In this document: piece by piece, positions 7,962 to 26,349 of the stretch
Layout of the letters: every line of letters begins with the position of its first letter
How positions within the stretch are numbered: position 1 is the first letter of the stretch
Source: a virus
Taxonomy: Duplodnaviria; Heunggongvirae; Uroviricota; Caudoviricetes
Virus record (IMG/VR): IMGVR_UViG_2541047807_000007
Direction: 5' to 3' (one strand)
DNA length: 33,905 bases
Program-made: the position numbers and the translations under genes
Notes under the pieces: generated by a model
Told to the model about the DNA's origin: nothing
The model's input: the letters and a program-made list of their open reading frames with translations, nothing else
Databases searched by the model: none

Positions 7962-9263
7962 ATGGAAAATATAAAGATTGATAAGTTTCTCACTATTCAA
8001 AAAGTTGATATTCCTCTTAAGAAAGTGAATATATTTATTGGGCCTCAGGCACAGGGGAAAAGTGTCATTGCAAAGCTAATAAAATATTTTAAAGATTATC
8101 CTATGGATATACTACGAGCTTCAACAGAGGGTAAAACTAAAAGAGATATATTGAAGGAGCAAAAGAATAAGTTTAGTAAAATTTTCCCTCAGCAGTATTG
8201 GGCTGATGATGAGTTTTTTATTGAGTATAGTAATAAGCACTATTGGGTGCGGATTACTAATCGAAAAAATAGCAAAGGGTCATTGAAAATAGACCTTTCT
8301 GAGAATTTAACGAAGACGATTGCTAAACTTCGTTTGATTGTACGAAAGGATTTAGATGAAAATATTGAGAATTCACTTGCAGAAAGCGTTACGAGAAGAC
8401 GTAAACGCGGAATTGAACATGAATTGCGAGTATGTCTTTCTCTAGGATTGTTTTCAGAACCAGAAACAAAGCTTGAAAGTGTTTTTTATATCCCCGCAGG
8501 GCGCTCTTTTTTTGCTAATTTGCAAAAAAATGTGTTTTCATTTTTATCCAGTAGTATAGAAATTGACTACTTTTTGACAGAGTTTGGTTCTCTGTATGAA
8601 CAAACAAAAAAATTATTTAACCAAGATTACATGATTAGGATGCTTAGGGGGGCTGTGCCTCAACATGTTAATAAACTTGTGGAGGAGTTGATTTGCGGAA
8701 AATATATAACAGAAAAGGGTGAGGATTTTATTCGTCATGCTGCTAAGAAGACGAATCTTAACAACTCGAGCTCAGGGCAGCAAGAAGCGTTACCAATGGC
8801 TTTAATGTTATCCTCATGGCCGTATTTACAGTCTGTGACTAGTAAGAGTTTTATTATTGAGGAGCCGGAGGCTCATCTGTTTCCTTCTGCCCAAGCAAAA
8901 GTTGTATCTTTAATAGCCTCAGCGTATAACCAAGCAGAAAGCTATTGTAGCTATACAATAACAACACATAGTCCATATATTCTAAGTGCCTTCAATAATT
9001 TGATTCAAGCAGGTAATGCATTAAAGTGTATTAAGGGCAAGAATAATACCGATATCGAACGCTTATATAAGCTTGTTCCAGAGTCTCAAATTATTGATTT
9101 TGATGATGTGACAGCTTATATGGTTAATGCTGGGAAAGTGACGGAAATACTGGATTCCGAACTAAATATATTAGATGCGAATGAAATAGATAGGATTTCC
9201 TCTATTTTTTCAGAGACTTTTGATGCATTGATTGATATCGAATATTCGGCTACTGTGAATTAG
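7962..9263 (+). CDS. OLD-like / AAA_21-type ABC ATPase (433 aa), no fused nuclease domain; cargo
   Basis: Walker A GPQAQGKS near the N-terminus, Q-loop-like YIPAGR, ABC signature-like SSGQQ, Walker B FIIEEPEAHLFP, H-loop TTHSP; SD AAGGAG; very AT-rich. Confidence 0.8.
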   Translation: MENIKIDKFLTIQKVDIPLKKVNIFIGPQAQGKSVIAKLIKYFKDYPMDILRASTEGKTKRDILKEQKNKFSKIFPQQYWADDEFFIEYSNKHYWVRITNRKNSKGSLKIDLSENLTKTIAKLRLIVRKDLDENIENSLAESVTRRRKRGIEHELRVCLSLGLFSEPETKLESVFYIPAGRSFFANLQKNVFSFLSSSIEIDYFLTEFGSLYEQTKKLFNQDYMIRMLRGAVPQHVNKLVEELICGKYITEKGEDFIRHAAKKTNLNNSSSGQQEALPMALMLSSWPYLQSVTSKSFIIEEPEAHLFPSAQAKVVSLIASAYNQAESYCSYTITTHSPYILSAFNNLIQAGNALKCIKGKNNTDIERLYKLVPESQIIDFDDVTAYMVNAGKVTEILDSELNILDANEIDRISSIFSETFDALIDIEYSATVN

Positions 9264-20902: not shown

Positions 20903-21811
20903 ATGCCGATTATCGACCTGAACCAGCTACCCGCACCGGATGTGGTCGAGGAGCTGGACTTTGAAACCATTCTTGCCGAACGCAAGGCGACACTGATTTC
21001 CCTTTACCCGGAAGACCAGCAGGAGGCGGTCGCCCGTACCCTGACGCTGGAATCCGAGCCTCTCGTCAAACTGCTGGAGGAAAATGCGTATCGCGAGCTT
21101 ATCTGGCGTCAGCGTGTGAATGAGGCTGCACGGGCGGTGATGCTGGCCTGGGCAGCCGGTAATGACCTTGATGTGATTGGTGTCAATTACAACACCACGC
21201 GCCTGACTATCACCCCGGCAGATGATTCGACTATCCCGCCGACACCGGCAGTGATGGAGTCTGACACCGATTATCGTCTGCGTATTCAGCAGGCGTTTGA
21301 AGGCTTAAGCGTCGCCGGGTCGGTGGGAGCCTATCAGTATCATGGTCGCAGTGCCGACGGGCGTGTCGCGGATATCTCTGTCACCAGTCCGTCTCCGGCC
21401 TGTGTCACCATCTCTGTGCTGTCACGTGAAAATAACGGTGTGGCATCTGAAGACCTGCTGGCTGTGGTGCGCAACGCCCTGAATGGCGAGGACGTCAGAC
21501 CGGTGGCCGACCGTGTGACCGTGCAGTCTGCCGCCATCGTTGAATACCAGATAAATGCCACGCTTTACCTTTACCCTGGCCCCGAAAGCGAACCCATTCG
21601 CGCTGCCGCCGTGAAAAAACTGGAAGCGTACATCACGGCACAGCACCGGCTGGGGCGCGACATCCGTCTGTCTGCCATTTATGCCGCCTTGCATGTGGAA
21701 GGCGTGCAGCGTGTCGAACTGGCTGCACCACTGGCCGACATCGTGCTCAACAGTACGCAGGCGTCTTTCTGCACCGAATACCGCGTCGTGACCGGAGGCT
21801 CGGATGAGTGA
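20903..21811 (+). CDS. J: Baseplate protein gpJ (302 aa)
   Basis: Length and position of P2 gpJ. Confidence 0.88.
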   Translation: MPIIDLNQLPAPDVVEELDFETILAERKATLISLYPEDQQEAVARTLTLESEPLVKLLEENAYRELIWRQRVNEAARAVMLAWAAGNDLDVIGVNYNTTRLTITPADDSTIPPTPAVMESDTDYRLRIQQAFEGLSVAGSVGAYQYHGRSADGRVADISVTSPSPACVTISVLSRENNGVASEDLLAVVRNALNGEDVRPVADRVTVQSAAIVEYQINATLYLYPGPESEPIRAAAVKKLEAYITAQHRLGRDIRLSAIYAALHVEGVQRVELAAPLADIVLNSTQASFCTEYRVVTGGSDE

Positions 21812-22334
21812 TTCGCGCCTGCTGCCGACCGGCTCATCACCGCTTGAAGTCGCTGCCGCGAAAGCCTGTGCGGAAATTGAAAAAACGCCGGTCAGTATTC
21901 GTGAGCTGTGGAACCCGGACACCTGCCCGGCAAATCTGCTGCCGTGGCTGGCGTGGGCGTTTTCGGTCGACAGGTGGGATGAAAAGTGGCCGGAAGCGAC
22001 AAAACGCGTCGTTATCCGCGATGCCTATTTCATCCACTGTCATAAGGGCACGATAGGTGCAATCCGACGTGTGGTGGAGCCGCTCGGCTATCTCATCAAC
22101 GTGACGGAGTGGTGGGAAAACAGTGACCCGCCCGGCACCTTCCGGCTTGATATTGGTGTACTGGAAAGCGGTATCACAGAGGCAATGTATCAGGAAATGG
22201 AACGGCTGATTGCTGATGCCAAACCTGCAAGCCGTCACCTTATTGGTCTGAACATTACCCGGGACATTCCCGGCTATCTGTTCGCCGGTGGTGTGGCTTA
22301 CGACGGCGATGTAATTACGGTTTACCCCGGATAA
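21804..22334 (+). CDS. I: Baseplate protein gpI (176 aa)
   Basis: Length and position of P2 gpI; overlaps the J stop. Confidence 0.88.
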   Translation: MSDSRLLPTGSSPLEVAAAKACAEIEKTPVSIRELWNPDTCPANLLPWLAWAFSVDRWDEKWPEATKRVVIRDAYFIHCHKGTIGAIRRVVEPLGYLINVTEWWENSDPPGTFRLDIGVLESGITEAMYQEMERLIADAKPASRHLIGLNITRDIPGYLFAGGVAYDGDVITVYPG

Positions 22335-22344
22335 GTGAGGAATA

Positions 22345-24594
22345 ATGAGCACAAAATTCAAAACCGTTATCACTACTGCCGGTGCAGCAAAGCTGGCAGC
22401 GGCAACCGCGCCGGGAGGGCGGAAGGTCAACATTACCACGATGGCCGTCGGGGATGGCGGTGGTAAATTGCCTGTCCCGGATGCCGGACAGACCGGGCTT
22501 ATCCACGAAGTCTGGCGACATGCGCTGAACAAAATCAGTCAGGACAAACGAAACAGTAATTATATTATCGCAGAGCTGGTTATTCCGCCGGAGGTGGGCG
22601 GTTTCTGGATGCGTGAGCTTGGCCTGTACGATGATGCGGGAACATTAATTGCCGTGGCGAACATGGCCGAAAGTTATAAACCCGCTCTTGCCGAAGGCTC
22701 AGGGCGTTCGCAGACCTGCCGCATGGTCATCATCGTCAGCAGTGTGGCCTCAGTGGCGCTGACCATTGACACCACAACGGTGATGGCGACGCAGGATTAC
22801 GTTGATGACAAAATTGCAGAACACGAACAGTCACGACGCCACCCGGACGCCTCACTGACTGCAAAAGGTTTTACTCAGTTAAGCAGCGCGACCAATAGTG
22901 AATCTGAAACGCTGGCTGCAACGCCGAAAGCGGTTAAGGCAGCGTATGACCTTGCTAACGGAAAATATACCGCTCAGGACGCCAGCACGGGGCGAAAAGG
23001 TCTTGTTCAGCTAAGTAGTGCCATCAACAGCGAATCTGAGACGCTCGCAGCAACGCCGAAGGCAGTTAAGACAGCATATGACCTTGCTAATGGCAAATAC
23101 ACCGCGCAGGACGCCACCACCGCGCGAAAAGGCCTTGTTCAGCTCAGTAGTGCCACCAACAGCGATTCTGAAACGCTGGCCGCAACGCCAAAGGCGGTTA
23201 AGACAGCGTATGACCTTGCTAACGGGAAATACACTGCACAGGATGCCACCACAGCGCGAAAAGGTCTTGTCCAGCTAAGTAGCGCCACCAACAGTGATTC
23301 TGAAACGCTGGCCGCAACACCAAAAGCGGTGAAGTCTGCCAATGACAATGCTGAAAAACGTCTTCAGAAAGATAAGAACGGTGCGGATATTCCTGATAAA
23401 GAACGCTTCCTGAGTAACATTAATGTTTACAGCAAAGGTGAAGTGGATAAGAAAAAGGGAATGCGAAAGTATTCGTTTGCAGCCCCTGCAAATGTCGTTG
23501 CCGGGAAGTGGTATCCCGTTATCTTTCGCCGTGCTGCCAGCCTTTCAGGAGAAATGGCATCCCGCGTCGTTATTTCCACTGGTTGTTATAACGGCGATTA
23601 TGTAATGAATAACTGCGAGTTTAATGGCATGGTTATGCCCGGAGGATGGACTGATCGCGGTTCATATGCGGCAGGCTATTTCTGGACGTATCAGACCAAT
23701 GAGCGTTCAATTCATTCCATTGTTACAAGCCTGAAAGATGATGATGTATGTAGTGTTTTTTATGTTGAAGCCAGAGCTTTCCCTGTGCAAATTCTTGCAG
23801 AGGAAGGGCTAACGGTTATTGTTCCGACAGAGGATTATGTCGTCGGTCAGACGACATATAAGTGGGGGGCAACTAATCCTGCCACAGAAAGCACGAATGC
23901 ACAGGCTATTCTGGATTTTAAAAATGGGCGCGGTTATTACTGCTCACATCCATTTATTTCCAGCCTTTCAGGAAATGCTGCAACAGCAACAAAGTTAGCG
24001 AACGCAAGAAATATTAATGGTGTCAGATTTGATGGCTCTGCCGATATAAATATTAATACACTGGTATCCAGAAACCGTGTTACTGCATTAGGTGGGAGCG
24101 CAAAGGGTACACCAGGTATTCAGATGTATGAGGCATACAACAATGGCTACCCAACAGCCTATGGTAATGTGCTTCATCTCACTGGCGTAACCGCAGTAGG
24201 AGAGGGTGAGTTACTTATTGGCTGGAGTGGAACCAGCGGTGCTCATGCTCCGGCATATATTCGCTCCCGACGAGATACCACAGATGCTAACTGGTCTGGA
24301 TGGGCGCAACTATATACAACTGCTCATAAACCCTCAGCGGGAGATGTTGGTGCATACACCAAAGCTGAGTCAGATTCACGTTATGTGAGAGACATGCGGC
24401 TGGGCGGTGCATCTACATATAAACCAGCAAATAATGGTATTACATGGACGCATCAGGCTCCGTCAGGTTGCGTATATACCGGCATTATTGTTCAGGATAC
24501 CGGCTCAAACTCTGCCGATAACATTGGTGGCGTATATTACAGACCGGTGCAGAAATACATTAACGGGACATGGTATAACGTGGCGCAGGTATAA
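22345..24594 (+). CDS. H: Tail fibre protein gpH (749 aa) with internal tandem repeats and a distinct distal domain
   Basis: Conserved N-terminal baseplate-attachment region, then repeats of the KGLVQLSSATNS-SETLAATPKAVK-AYDLANGKYTAQDA motif, then a distal domain. Confidence 0.88.
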   Translation: MSTKFKTVITTAGAAKLAAATAPGGRKVNITTMAVGDGGGKLPVPDAGQTGLIHEVWRHALNKISQDKRNSNYIIAELVIPPEVGGFWMRELGLYDDAGTLIAVANMAESYKPALAEGSGRSQTCRMVIIVSSVASVALTIDTTTVMATQDYVDDKIAEHEQSRRHPDASLTAKGFTQLSSATNSESETLAATPKAVKAAYDLANGKYTAQDASTGRKGLVQLSSAINSESETLAATPKAVKTAYDLANGKYTAQDATTARKGLVQLSSATNSDSETLAATPKAVKTAYDLANGKYTAQDATTARKGLVQLSSATNSDSETLAATPKAVKSANDNAEKRLQKDKNGADIPDKERFLSNINVYSKGEVDKKKGMRKYSFAAPANVVAGKWYPVIFRRAASLSGEMASRVVISTGCYNGDYVMNNCEFNGMVMPGGWTDRGSYAAGYFWTYQTNERSIHSIVTSLKDDDVCSVFYVEARAFPVQILAEEGLTVIVPTEDYVVGQTTYKWGATNPATESTNAQAILDFKNGRGYYCSHPFISSLSGNAATATKLANARNINGVRFDGSADININTLVSRNRVTALGGSAKGTPGIQMYEAYNNGYPTAYGNVLHLTGVTAVGEGELLIGWSGTSGAHAPAYIRSRRDTTDANWSGWAQLYTTAHKPSAGDVGAYTKAESDSRYVRDMRLGGASTYKPANNGITWTHQAPSGCVYTGIIVQDTGSNSADNIGGVYYRPVQKYINGTWYNVAQV
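22864..23334 (+). repeat. In-frame tandem repeat inside H: 3 full plus 1 partial copies of a 132-bp (44-aa) unit
   Basis: Repeat units begin at residues K174, K218, K262 and K306; nearly identical at protein level but with many synonymous DNA differences. Confidence 0.8.
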
Positions 24595-24597
24595 TTT

Positions 24598-25125
24598 ATG
24601 CAGCATTTAAAAAATATTACGGCGGGTAATCCAAAAACGGTTGAACAATATCAATTGACAAAGGACTTTGATGTTGTCTGGTTTTTTTCAGAAGATGGTA
24701 AGAACTGGTACGAAGAACAAAAGTATTTTGCTGATGACACGATAAAAATAGCGTACGACAAAGATAATATCATCCGCTATGTGGAAAAGGATGTGACAGC
24801 TATCAGACCGGATGGATTAAGTGTTGTTGAAGTGGCGGATATTACTGCTAACCGACGGGCGGACATTTCAGGGAACTGGATGTTTAAGGACGGCAAAGTG
24901 ATTAAACGCATTTATACGGCAGAGGAATTACAGCAGCAGGCAGAAATTCAGAAAGCCAGACTTCTTGCAGATGCTGAATCCGTGATTTTGCCGCTGGAGC
25001 GCGCGGTCAGACTGAACATGGCAACAGATGAGGAGCGCACACGGCTGGAGGCTTGGGAACGTTACAGCGTTGTGGTCAGTCGTGTGGATCCTACAAATCC
25101 TGAATGGCCGGAAATGCCGCAATAA
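24598..25125 (+). CDS. G: Tail fibre assembly chaperone gpG (175 aa)
   Basis: Length and position of P2 gpG, immediately after H. Confidence 0.85.
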
Positions 25126-25347: not shown

Positions 25348-25626
25348 TTACTTGTTCCACTCAGTCAGAATTTGGTTACTAACTTCATCTGAGAGATTGT
25401 ACCAATAAGCTGAGTTATTGGTTGCATCTACAACAATAAGCTTATCATCACTATCCATGACCGCCCTCACAATTTTGGCTGCATCCTCGGCAGAGTAACT
25501 ACAGTTAACATACCAGTTCGATTCAGTTGTTAAAGCCCAATTTCCTAAAGATTTAATTGCATCATACACAGCCGCATAATCTTTCGTTTTAATGAGGTCG
25601 TAAGTAATAAATAAATTATTAGCCAT
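25348..25626 (-). CDS. Hypothetical 92-aa protein (cargo), downstream of the DUF3606-like gene
   Basis: SD GGGAG before the ATG; aromatic-rich small globular-looking protein; AT-rich; no family I can name. Confidence 0.6.
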   Translation of the reverse strand: MANNLFITYDLIKTKDYAAVYDAIKSLGNWALTTESNWYVNCSYSAEDAAKIVRAVMDSDDKLIVVDATNNSAYWYNLSDEVSNQILTEWNK

Positions 25627-25678: not shown

Positions 25679-25858
25679 TTAATGGTCTTTAAGCCATGCC
25701 TGTACTTTCTTAGCCGAATGACCTACAGCCTGTACGGCTTGAACAAGTTTGGCCTCGCTAACTCCAAACTTTTCAGCCCAATCACGTCTCTCGTAATCCT
25801 GTTTGATACTTATTAAATCATTGTCAGGGGTACCGATTTTGGTCTTATCATCAGCCAT
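25679..25858 (-). CDS. DUF3606-like small protein (59 aa from internal ATG; track ORF extends to 25897)
   Basis: Motif W.EKFGVSEAKL..AV.AVG.S...V..WL is typical of the DUF3606 family as I recall it; SD GAGGA before the internal Met. Confidence 0.55.
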   Translation of the reverse strand: MADDKTKIGTPDNDLISIKQDYERRDWAEKFGVSEAKLVQAVQAVGHSAKKVQAWLKDH

Positions 25859-26349
25859 TTTACTGATTCCTCGTGATACAGGCTTATACCTGCCCATTAG
25901 TTATATGGCTCCCGTGCTGCTTCGTAAACGTTCAATAATCAAACAATTGACACTGATCATAAAACCAGTTAGAGGATTTGACTCTAGCTTGGATATATGA
26001 TGATGCCACCCCCTTTATATTGTTGTCGGTAACTCACAGACATTGAACTCATGCTGGTGAGTGAAAGGCTACATAAACGCCCAACATTTAAACTGCCCTC
26101 AGCAGTGTTCGCGGAGCAATATACAGGCTTCGTATTCAATCCTTGCCCTACGAGAAACCCTAGCCGTTGCCTCGTTTTCAAGTGTCAGGAAGTTCTTTGT
26201 CAGACCTCATACAGTCTTGGGCTGGGTGAGGTGCATGGGGGAAGTTGAAGCCTTAACTGTTGAGGTAAATCGAACTATAAGTGTGCAATTTTTCAAGCTC
26301 GGCGCTATTTTAGTATTGAAAACAATTAGTACGCCCCCAAGGACAACTC

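Follow-up and report, generated by a model that had tools for sequence, protein, structure and literature searches.

Four tandem PF03406 repeats in the tail-fibre gene of a P2-like phage

Introduction

Why does a phage tail fibre carry tandem repeats that are nearly the same in protein and clearly different in DNA, and is the difference itself maintained by selection? The question is raised by gene H in a 33,905-nucleotide stretch of Caudoviricetes DNA (IMG/VR record IMGVR_UViG_2541047807_000007), which we call the window. In phage P2, according to the literature, gpH is a homotrimeric fibre that is attached to gpI and binds the host surface. A role of gpI in holding gpH has been described, and a model of the P2 fibre places 'two repeat domains (RBPseg-D19)' after the adaptor domain (bioRxiv 10.64898/2026.09.14.750843). 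A first-pass annotation of the window had proposed that selection keeps the repeat number or the fibre length, and that synonymous divergence limits the recombinational collapse of the array. We examined the array, its relatives and these proposals.

Gene H and its repeat array

The gene had been assigned to the P2 H type, and this assignment is borne out by the PF12571 N-terminal domain, the J-I-H-G gene order and the Caudo_TAP chaperone gene downstream (Table 1). The PF12571 match spans profile positions 1-150 of 150, and gpI lies upstream, a layout as in P2. From nt 9000 onward the window is ~96% identical to Peduovirus genomes, and the dS of the N-terminal domain against other E. coli Peduovirus H genes is 0.08-0.14. 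The whole protein matches Mu S/S' (8ju3) with E = 1.7e-35, and the C-terminal tip also matches the short tail fibre 9cuy.

Table 1. Features of gene H and its surroundings (positions in the window)
Feature	Position	Strand	Details
gpI baseplate protein, attachment partner of H	21804..22334	+	PF09684 Tail_P2_I, E = 5.2e-55
Tail-fibre gene H, P2 gpH type, 749 aa	22345..24594	+	PF12571 and four PF03406 matches
N-terminal tail-collar / baseplate-adaptor domain, aa 1-151	22345..22797	+	PF12571, E = 2.6e-58
Repeat unit 1	22864..22995	+	aa 174-217; 26-aa core KGFTQLSSATNSESETLAATPKAVKA and 18-aa linker
Repeat unit 2	22996..23127	+	aa 218-261; minority core allele
+1-frame ORF inside H, 86 aa, artefact	23018..23278	+	no Pfam or PHROG match
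Repeat unit 3	23128..23259	+	aa 262-305
Antisense ORF inside H, 69 aa, artefact	23139..23348	-	no Pfam match; two PHROG matches
Repeat unit 4, core only, array end	23260..23337	+	aa 306-331
Mu gpS-like linker after the array (NDNAEKRLQKDKNGADIPDKERFLSNI)	23338..23430	+	aligns with Mu tail fibre protein S 99-173
C-terminal fibre tip, aa 638-747	24256..24585	+	matches Mu S/S' tip, 8ju3 residues 385-486
Tail-fibre assembly chaperone, gpG type	24598..25125	+	PF02413 Caudo_TAP, E = 2.4e-34; G's place in P2

The 3.5 tandem 44-aa repeats that had been read at 22864-23334 are real. Tandem Repeats Finder places them at 22863-23334, with a period of 132 nt, 3.6 copies, 85% matches, no indels and a score of 650. 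Self-comparison of 22864-23334 gives an identity of 0.858 at lag 132 and 0.821 at lag 264, against a mean of 0.256 (maximum 0.33) at other lags; the lag-132 signal stands at z = 23.8 against codon-shuffled controls (mean 0.283 +/- 0.024). Successive units begin exactly 44 aa apart, and three full 44-aa units are followed by the 26-aa core alone, which ends near 23337. Each unit consists of a conserved core, KGxVQLSSATNSxSETLAATPKAVK, and a linker, xAYDLANGKYTAQDATTAR. A weak echo of the tail of the linker is also seen upstream of the array, at 22832-22843.

The repeat belongs to a catalogued family. The PF03406 (Phage_fiber_2) profile has four matches in H, with 263.6 bits against a cut-off of 22; all four units match it end to end, the best stretch being profile positions 1-41 of 42. 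The array is thus a plain member of PF03406 / InterPro IPR005068 'phage tail fibre repeat', with four copies and no notable difference. The same family appears as 'Pf2' in prophage collagen-like fibre proteins (PMC3368898). GenBank records label such genes 'tail fiber repeat protein'.

P2 gpH (AAD03286.1, 669 aa) has the same N-terminal domain (dS 0.12 and dN 0.018 against the window), and its J-I-H-G neighbourhood and repeat start at aa 174 are both as in the window. It has two motif copies, whereas H has four. The first-pass annotation had presented the repeat as a feature that makes H longer than P2 gpH. The length difference is true (749 against 669 aa), the two extra units adding 88 aa, but the repeat went unrecognised as a catalogued one that is present in P2 gpH too. 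Behind the final core, P2 reads VMDETNKKAPLNSPALTG... and then has a distal part of its own, while the window has a Mu S-like linker and another distal region. The region beyond the repeats in H is a different module from that of P2.

The motif and linker of Mu tail fibre protein S (5yvq, 8ju3, 9ki1) align at residues 99-173, as taken from the PDB sequences 5yvq and 8ju3, to the last unit and the linker of the window, and the C-terminal tip of Mu S is related to that of H. On the other hand, Mu S has a single motif copy and an N-terminal attachment region unlike that of H. Searched against solved structures, the repeat region alone found nothing but Mu gpS; matches to penicillin-binding proteins in this search (E near 0.5-1) were dismissed as noise. 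An AlphaFold2 monomer model of aa 1-400, made with 35 homologues, had a mean pLDDT of 49 and of ~40 across the repeats; the shaft is trimeric, and the model was unusable.

Closest relatives of the allele

Four motif copies in proteins of 748-749 aa are also found in phage 9W, Peduovirus P22H4 and the E. coli prophages KSC207, APEC O78 and F374. Nucleotides 1-1643 of H have 96.3% nt identity to the tail-fibre genes of P22H4 and 9W. The 9W tail fibre has 87.6% protein identity to H over the full length, with units 3 and 4 identical, and the KSC207 tail fibre has 96.5% DNA identity over the full length. Full-length matches at 96.2-96.5% occur in 64 complete E. coli genomes, and none of the full-length matches listed is at >96.5%.

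The H gene is itself mosaic, with a unit 1-2 allele as in APEC O78/F374 and a KSC207-type segment at nt 1585-1980. The stretch of units 1 and 2 is identical in APEC O78 and F374. The unit 1 core is 100% identical to that of the first unit at locus L080 and 89% to the next-nearest first units. For the unit 2 core, the values are 100% in L080, 97% in unit 2 of an E. albertii locus (L014) and <=88% elsewhere. The unit 3 core matches unit 3 of phage 9W (L001) and of L086 at 100%, and unit 4 is 100% identical to the last unit in 9W and in L080.

Synonymous divergence between units

The full-unit pairs share 38/44, 38/44 and 42/44 amino acids and 108-116 of 132 nucleotides. Their differences at the first, second and third codon positions number 4, 4 and 16; 4, 3 and 17; and 0, 1 and 15, respectively. 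Since third-position differences dominate and protein identity is high, the description of the units as conserved in protein and diverged at synonymous sites was correct. With a dN/dS of 0.02-0.11 and a dS of 0.6-1.3 between units, the unit protein is under strong purifying selection. The unit-to-unit nt identity of the window (79-88%) is typical, next to a median of 84% (range 41-100%) in 94 distinct arrays.

It had further been suggested that the synonymous divergence is itself selected, removing DNA homology for unit deletion and thereby protecting repeat number or fibre length. RecBCD-dependent recombination in E. coli needs roughly 23-27 bp of exact homology to be efficient. The longest exact runs between the window units, of only 11-23 nt, are about at or below this need and therefore count in favour of the suggestion, as do the rarity of near-identical adjacent units among relatives and the stability of array positions within the E. 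coli Peduovirus group. However, at positions with the same amino acid, we observed 8-17 codon differences where 14-27 are expected with random codons, so that no pair reaches the divergence expected of random codons. Moreover, in relatives the units share exact runs of 44-132 nt, distant lineages have homogenised arrays, and both copy number and length are variable. The same pattern would be expected from plain neutral drift following an old duplication. We thus regard selection for the divergence itself as improbable, and the claim that it serves to limit collapse is not supported by the codon counts.

Copy number and fibre length

The repeat number in homologous H genes is not invariant: 1-6 motif copies are found, and the units are 44 aa apart in nearly every relative. 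At one locus (L103), two motif matches are separated by an 88-aa gap. The gpH proteins of P2, R18C and Wphi have two copies, at aa 174 and 218; three copies are found in P37, fiAA91-ss and PSP3, and four in 9W, YpM46, 12474II and P2DC1. The best 120 protein matches have 2-6 copies with a spacing that is always 44 aa. In the 80 closest viral contigs, two copies occur 14 times, three 3 times, four 49 times and five 14 times. One genome per species gives another distribution, with one copy in nine of the 22 genomes, two in seven, three in five and four in one. These samples are biased, since the contigs were ranked by the closeness of their N-terminal domain to that of the window and the protein matches by their score to a four-copy query; that four copies are commonest therefore applies to close relatives only.

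Protein length climbs with copy number (Spearman rho = 0.56, p = 2e-9). The distal part shows no compensating shortening (rho = -0.14, not significant). With copies varying from 1 to 6 and length following them uncompensated, neither repeat number nor fibre length appears to be kept by selection as had been proposed. Copy number does track the distal module, since P2-type fibres have two copies and Mu S-like fibres mostly three to five.

A different adaptive reading is that the number of PF03406 units is a length setting, units being gained or lost so that fibre reach suits the thickness of the host surface layer; only arrays drifted in DNA would then persist, identical-unit arrays collapsing quickly. 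The 1-6 copies, the link with the distal module type and the rarity of near-identical neighbours are compatible with this reading, which we nevertheless consider rather unlikely.

Unit turnover

Almost every unit (291 of 303) is nearer to a unit of another array than to any unit of its own array. The counterparts also agree in position: first units pair with first units in 92/93 cases, middle with middle in 132/135 and last with last in 71/84. Within the E. coli Peduovirus group, other phages hold a separate counterpart for each array position. Arrays of more distant lineages have been rebuilt or homogenised. Thus, in Buttiauxella, Scandinavium and PSP3, the units are 83-93% alike within an array and 61-79% like the units of the window, which indicates that units keep being duplicated or exchanged.

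Near-identical units are rare. Among 439 unit pairs in the 94 arrays, 221 of them adjacent, only five are at least 95% identical, and all five are adjacent. This rarity may be compatible with a fast loss of identical arrays. Adjacent units in three loci (L053, L078 and L110) are 99-100% identical in DNA, and such arrays therefore do exist in database sequences.

Could the array be a recent, unstable expansion that changes length frequently by slippage, in the style of a contingency locus? Copy number does differ between close relatives, and in some five-copy arrays the extra unit is 92-99% identical to its neighbour. The units of the window, however, are only 79-88% identical, with a dS of 0.6-1.3 and exact runs of 11-23 nt; the same four-copy allele recurs unit for unit in phage 9W and in many E. 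coli genomes, and the units have stable, position-specific counterparts. Such an expansion is very unlikely here.

The array end and the distal modules

In Megablast comparisons, the matches to relatives break off at gene nt 594, 728, ~860 and 990, positions at which successive cores end. The arrays always close with a core, and unrelated distal sequence comes next, either P2-type (VMDETNKK...) or Mu S-like (DNAEKRLQKD...). The Mu S-like linker of the window is also found behind arrays of 1-5 copies in relatives.

These observations raise the possibility that the cores persist mainly as shared homology for swapping distal receptor-binding modules, being recombination linkers first and structural spacers second. 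Matches ending exactly at core ends, 132 nt apart, and the unrelated P2-type or Mu S-like sequence behind a closing core speak for it. So do the mosaic H gene of the window and the occurrence of the motif in Mu S and in the side tail fibres of P1-like and lambdoid phages. The idea of cores as recombination linkers reportedly appears in Haggard-Ljungquist et al. 1992, and is said to appear in Sandmeier 1994 as well. On the other hand, the protein is conserved (dN/dS 0.02-0.11) while the DNA diverges, which is the opposite of selection for DNA homology, and matches that end at core ends are a trivial outcome of each phage's array ending there. We therefore take a primary linker role to be a serious candidate, though one that is somewhat less probable than not.

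Open reading frames in other frames

Two ORFs overlap the array in other frames and had been called repeat artefacts. In 86 distinct related arrays, the +1 frame has 329 stops in 12040 codons and the antisense frame 181 stops in 12040 codons; each is fully open in 2/86 arrays, whereas the H frame is open in 86/86. Because these frames are closed in 84/86 related arrays, both ORFs are artefacts. The one point in favour of real overlapping genes is a pair of PHROG matches of the antisense ORF, to phrog_26766 (E = 2.4e-13) and to phrog_24241 (E = 1.1e-8). Such matches are expected, however, if the same antisense frame has been annotated elsewhere over the conserved repeat, and neither ORF has a Pfam match. 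There is next to no chance that these ORFs are genes. The two PHROG families have no assigned function and probably owe their existence to spurious gene calls of this kind. A 'hypothetical protein' under some E. coli matches was considered as an annotated antisense ORF and rejected, as it turned out to be a piece of a disrupted H pseudogene.

Discussion

The window carries four PF03406 copies, very probably in the proximal part of the shaft of a P2 gpH-type trimeric fibre and as an ordinary allele of middling age. The N-terminal baseplate adaptor precedes the array, and the distal receptor-binding part follows it. Judging from sequence patterns, each unit would add a fixed stretch to the fibre shaft. 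The synonymous differences between units are of the sort that builds up after duplication. Units are occasionally gained, lost or exchanged, giving the 1-6 copies among relatives, and the array fits duplication, loss and exchange under purifying selection on the protein. The core that ends the array may be the junction at which recombination joins distal modules of the P2 or Mu S-like type.

The finding is ordinary and already known, as the repeat is a Pfam family, is present in P2 gpH and is labelled in GenBank. The copy-number survey adds modestly to the description of the repeat, with 1-6 copies, position-specific counterparts in close relatives and homogenised arrays in distant ones; we did not find its result stated in the literature open to searching. 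Across the repeat, gene callers can yield spurious other-frame ORFs, and calls of this kind seem to have found their way into PHROGs. In this phage group, part of the length variation of H genes comes in steps of whole 44-aa units. The core at the array end marks where the distal receptor-binding modules diverge, which is useful for the design of chimeric fibres.

The fibre gene and its repeat array

From nt 9000 onward, the window shares about 96% identity with the genomes of Peduovirus (P2-like) phages, R18C and vB_EcoM-12474 among them. The tail-fibre gene H is preceded by homologues of gpJ and gpI, the latter matching PF09684, and is followed by a tail-fibre assembly chaperone (PF02413 match), in the J-I-H-G order of P2. 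The H protein is longer than P2 gpH (749 against 669 aa), as the first-pass annotation had supposed. Four matches to PF03406 (Phage_fiber_2, 'phage tail fibre repeat') were found in H (263.6 bits against a cut-off of 22).

Features of the H gene and its surroundings
Feature	Position	Strand	Remark
H tail-fibre ORF	22345-24594	+	
N-terminal tail-collar domain	H aa 1-151		PF12571
Linker-like residues	22832-22863		ahead of unit 1
Tandem array	22863-23334		Tandem Repeats Finder
Repeat unit 1	starts 22864	+	
Cores of units 1-2	22873-23095		minority allele
Repeat unit 2	starts 22996	+	
Repeat unit 3	starts 23128	+	
Repeat unit 4	starts 23260	+	26-aa core only
Out-of-frame ORF	23018-23278	+	within H
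Antisense ORF	23139-23348	-	within H
Divergent distal segment	23929-24325		H nt 1585-1980
Small ORF	25348-25626	-	past chaperone gene
Small ORF	25679-25897	-	past chaperone gene

Tandem Repeats Finder detects a single strong array in the window (period 132, 3.6 copies, 85% matches, no indels, score 650). Identity at a lag of 132 nt is 0.858, compared with a mean of 0.256 at other lags and 0.283 +/- 0.024 in codon-shuffled controls (z = 23.8). Full units share 38-42 of 44 residues and 108-116 of 132 bases, and most differences lie at third codon positions; units 2 and 3 differ at 0, 1 and 15 sites of codon positions 1, 2 and 3, respectively. The earlier description of a repeat conserved in protein and diverged at synonymous sites is thus correct as written. 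With dN/dS of 0.02-0.11 and dS of 0.6-1.3 among the units, purifying selection clearly acts on the unit protein sequence. Ahead of unit 1, eleven residues (RHPDASLTA) look like the end of the linker between units (AQDATTAR); in effect, a degenerate partial linker opens the array.

The two ORFs in other frames within H are artefacts, as had been proposed: neither has a Pfam match, and each frame is closed in 84 of 86 distinct related arrays and fully open in only two, while the H frame stays open in every one of them. Stops number 329 in the plus-strand frame and 181 in the antisense frame. For the antisense ORF, two PHROGs of unknown function were hit, phrog_26766 (E = 2.4e-13) and phrog_24241 (E = 1.1e-8); both families probably consist of antisense ORFs wrongly called across PF03406 repeats in the records of other phages.

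Directly past the chaperone gene, two small minus-strand ORFs occupy the fun(Z) site of P2; one (92 aa) is without a Pfam match and the other (72 aa) matches DUF3606. Because a counterpart of the 92-aa ORF, equal in size, strand and position, is annotated in R18C, APEC O78 and F374, this region looks like a variable cargo spot of P2-like phages.

A known repeat family

PF03406 is a long-catalogued family, and the window holds an ordinary, known member of it, carried by a common allele of the P2-type H gene. A study of prophage fibre proteins lists the family as 'Pf2' (PMC3368898), and in 2021 it was among the repeat families without a solved structure (PMC8078820). P2 gpH carries the same repeat in two copies, at aa 174 and 218. 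In a 2026 preprint (bioRxiv 10.64898/2026.09.14.750843), the modelled P2 fibre has an adaptor domain, then 'two repeat domains (RBPseg-D19)', and beyond these the extension, anchor, knob and tip domains. Among sequences with solved structures, the motif occurs only in Mu tail fibre protein S, in one copy; residues 99-173 of this protein align to the last unit of the window and the linker after it, and the C-terminal tip of Mu S/S' is similar to that of H. Structure prediction of H gave no usable model. We infer a structural role for the unit.

Copy number and turnover

The first-pass annotation had also suggested that selection maintains repeat number or fibre length while limiting recombinational collapse. 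Its protein-level constraint is borne out by the low dN/dS; upkeep of number or length and divergence against collapse were not supported by the tests run. Relatives carry one to six copies.

PF03406 motif copies in related fibre proteins (number of sequences in brackets)
Sequences	Copies
P2, R18C, Wphi (669 aa)	2
P37, fiAA91-ss, PSP3	3
9W, vB_YpM_46, 12474II, P2DC1	4
Best 120 protein hits	2 to 6
80 viral contigs closest in N-terminal domain	2 (14), 3 (3), 4 (49), 5 (14)
22 genomes, one per species, mostly Enterobacteriaceae	1 (9), 2 (7), 3 (5), 4 (1)

Four copies, as in the window, are commonest among close relatives and P2 has a shorter minority form, both larger samples being skewed towards query-like sequences. 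In almost every locus, aa 173-174 marks the start of the array, and copies are spaced by 44 aa everywhere except in one locus (L103, one 88-aa gap). Total length increases with copy number (Spearman rho = 0.56, p = 2e-9), and no significant compensating shortening of the distal part was found (rho = -0.14).

Among the 120 protein hits, most database homologues carry the label 'partial' and stop within about 600 aa, and some E. coli genomes have up to nine matching sites. Assemblies from short reads appear to be broken in or close to H, and repeat counts from draft assemblies need care. An H gene of enterobacterial P2 type (74-78% protein identity in the N-terminal domain) is present in records titled Vagococcus sp. 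WN89Y and Chryseobacterium sp. 18061, most likely through contamination or mislabelled assembly.

The view that selection favours DNA divergence of the units, preventing collapse, is not supported. At same-amino-acid positions, two units differ in 8-17 codons, with 14-27 expected when codons are drawn randomly from the codon usage of the window, and every pair falls below expectation. One point favours the earlier reading: the longest exact matches between units are 11-23 nt, and efficient homologous recombination in E. coli needs a length near or above this, so the allele in the window should be fairly stable; however, this stability follows from its age and is not in itself a sign of selection for it. 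DNA identity among its units (79-88%) is typical of related arrays (median 84%, range 41-100% in 94 distinct arrays).

Adjacent units are 100% identical in one related locus (L053) and 99.2% in two others (L078 and L110), and five-copy arrays often have an additional unit with 92-99% identity to the one beside it. Of 303 units compared in the E. coli Peduovirus group, 291 are nearer to a unit of another array than to any of their own, and units pair by position (first with first, 92/93; middle with middle, 132/135; last with last, 71/84). In Buttiauxella, Scandinavium and PSP3, units are 83-93% alike within an array, compared with 61-79% to those of the window. The arrays turn over in the long run. 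Together, the copy-number, length, divergence, identity and position-pairing results form a pattern in which units duplicate, are lost and are occasionally exchanged, with silent sites drifting in between.

A mosaic gene with putative junctions at the cores

The H gene is mosaic. Its first 1650 nt show 63 differences from phage 9W; the unit 1 and unit 2 cores account for 27 of these, and none lies in units 3 or 4. Strain KSC207 gives the same pattern. Sixteen complete E. coli genomes, including APEC O78 and F374, have the window's unit 1-2 sequence at 99-100% identity (at least 14 at 100%). Another 317 genomes match it at 80-90% only, indicating two discrete alleles. Genomes with the window's allele diverge strongly from the window in the distal segment, which holds 225 of their 236-247 differences and in which the window matches KSC207. 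In three related hospital isolates, E. coli Z142-2 (NZ_CP159698.1) among them, an H gene otherwise 96.3% identical has been annotated as a pair of pseudogene fragments; thus, the prophage fibre gene is disrupted there.

Megablast matches to relatives stop at gene nt 594, 728, ~860 and 990, which are successive core ends 132 nt apart. Every array terminates in a core, beyond which the sequence continues in one of several unrelated ways: the P2 type is found in 14 of the 22 distinct two-copy proteins, and the Mu S-like type comes after arrays with one to five copies. Because the protein is conserved and the DNA is not, selection for DNA homology as such is disfavoured. According to Haggard-Ljungquist et al. 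(1992) and Sandmeier (1994), the motif reportedly marks where fibre modules are joined. The match ends and varied continuations fit this old idea, and the core may serve as such a junction.
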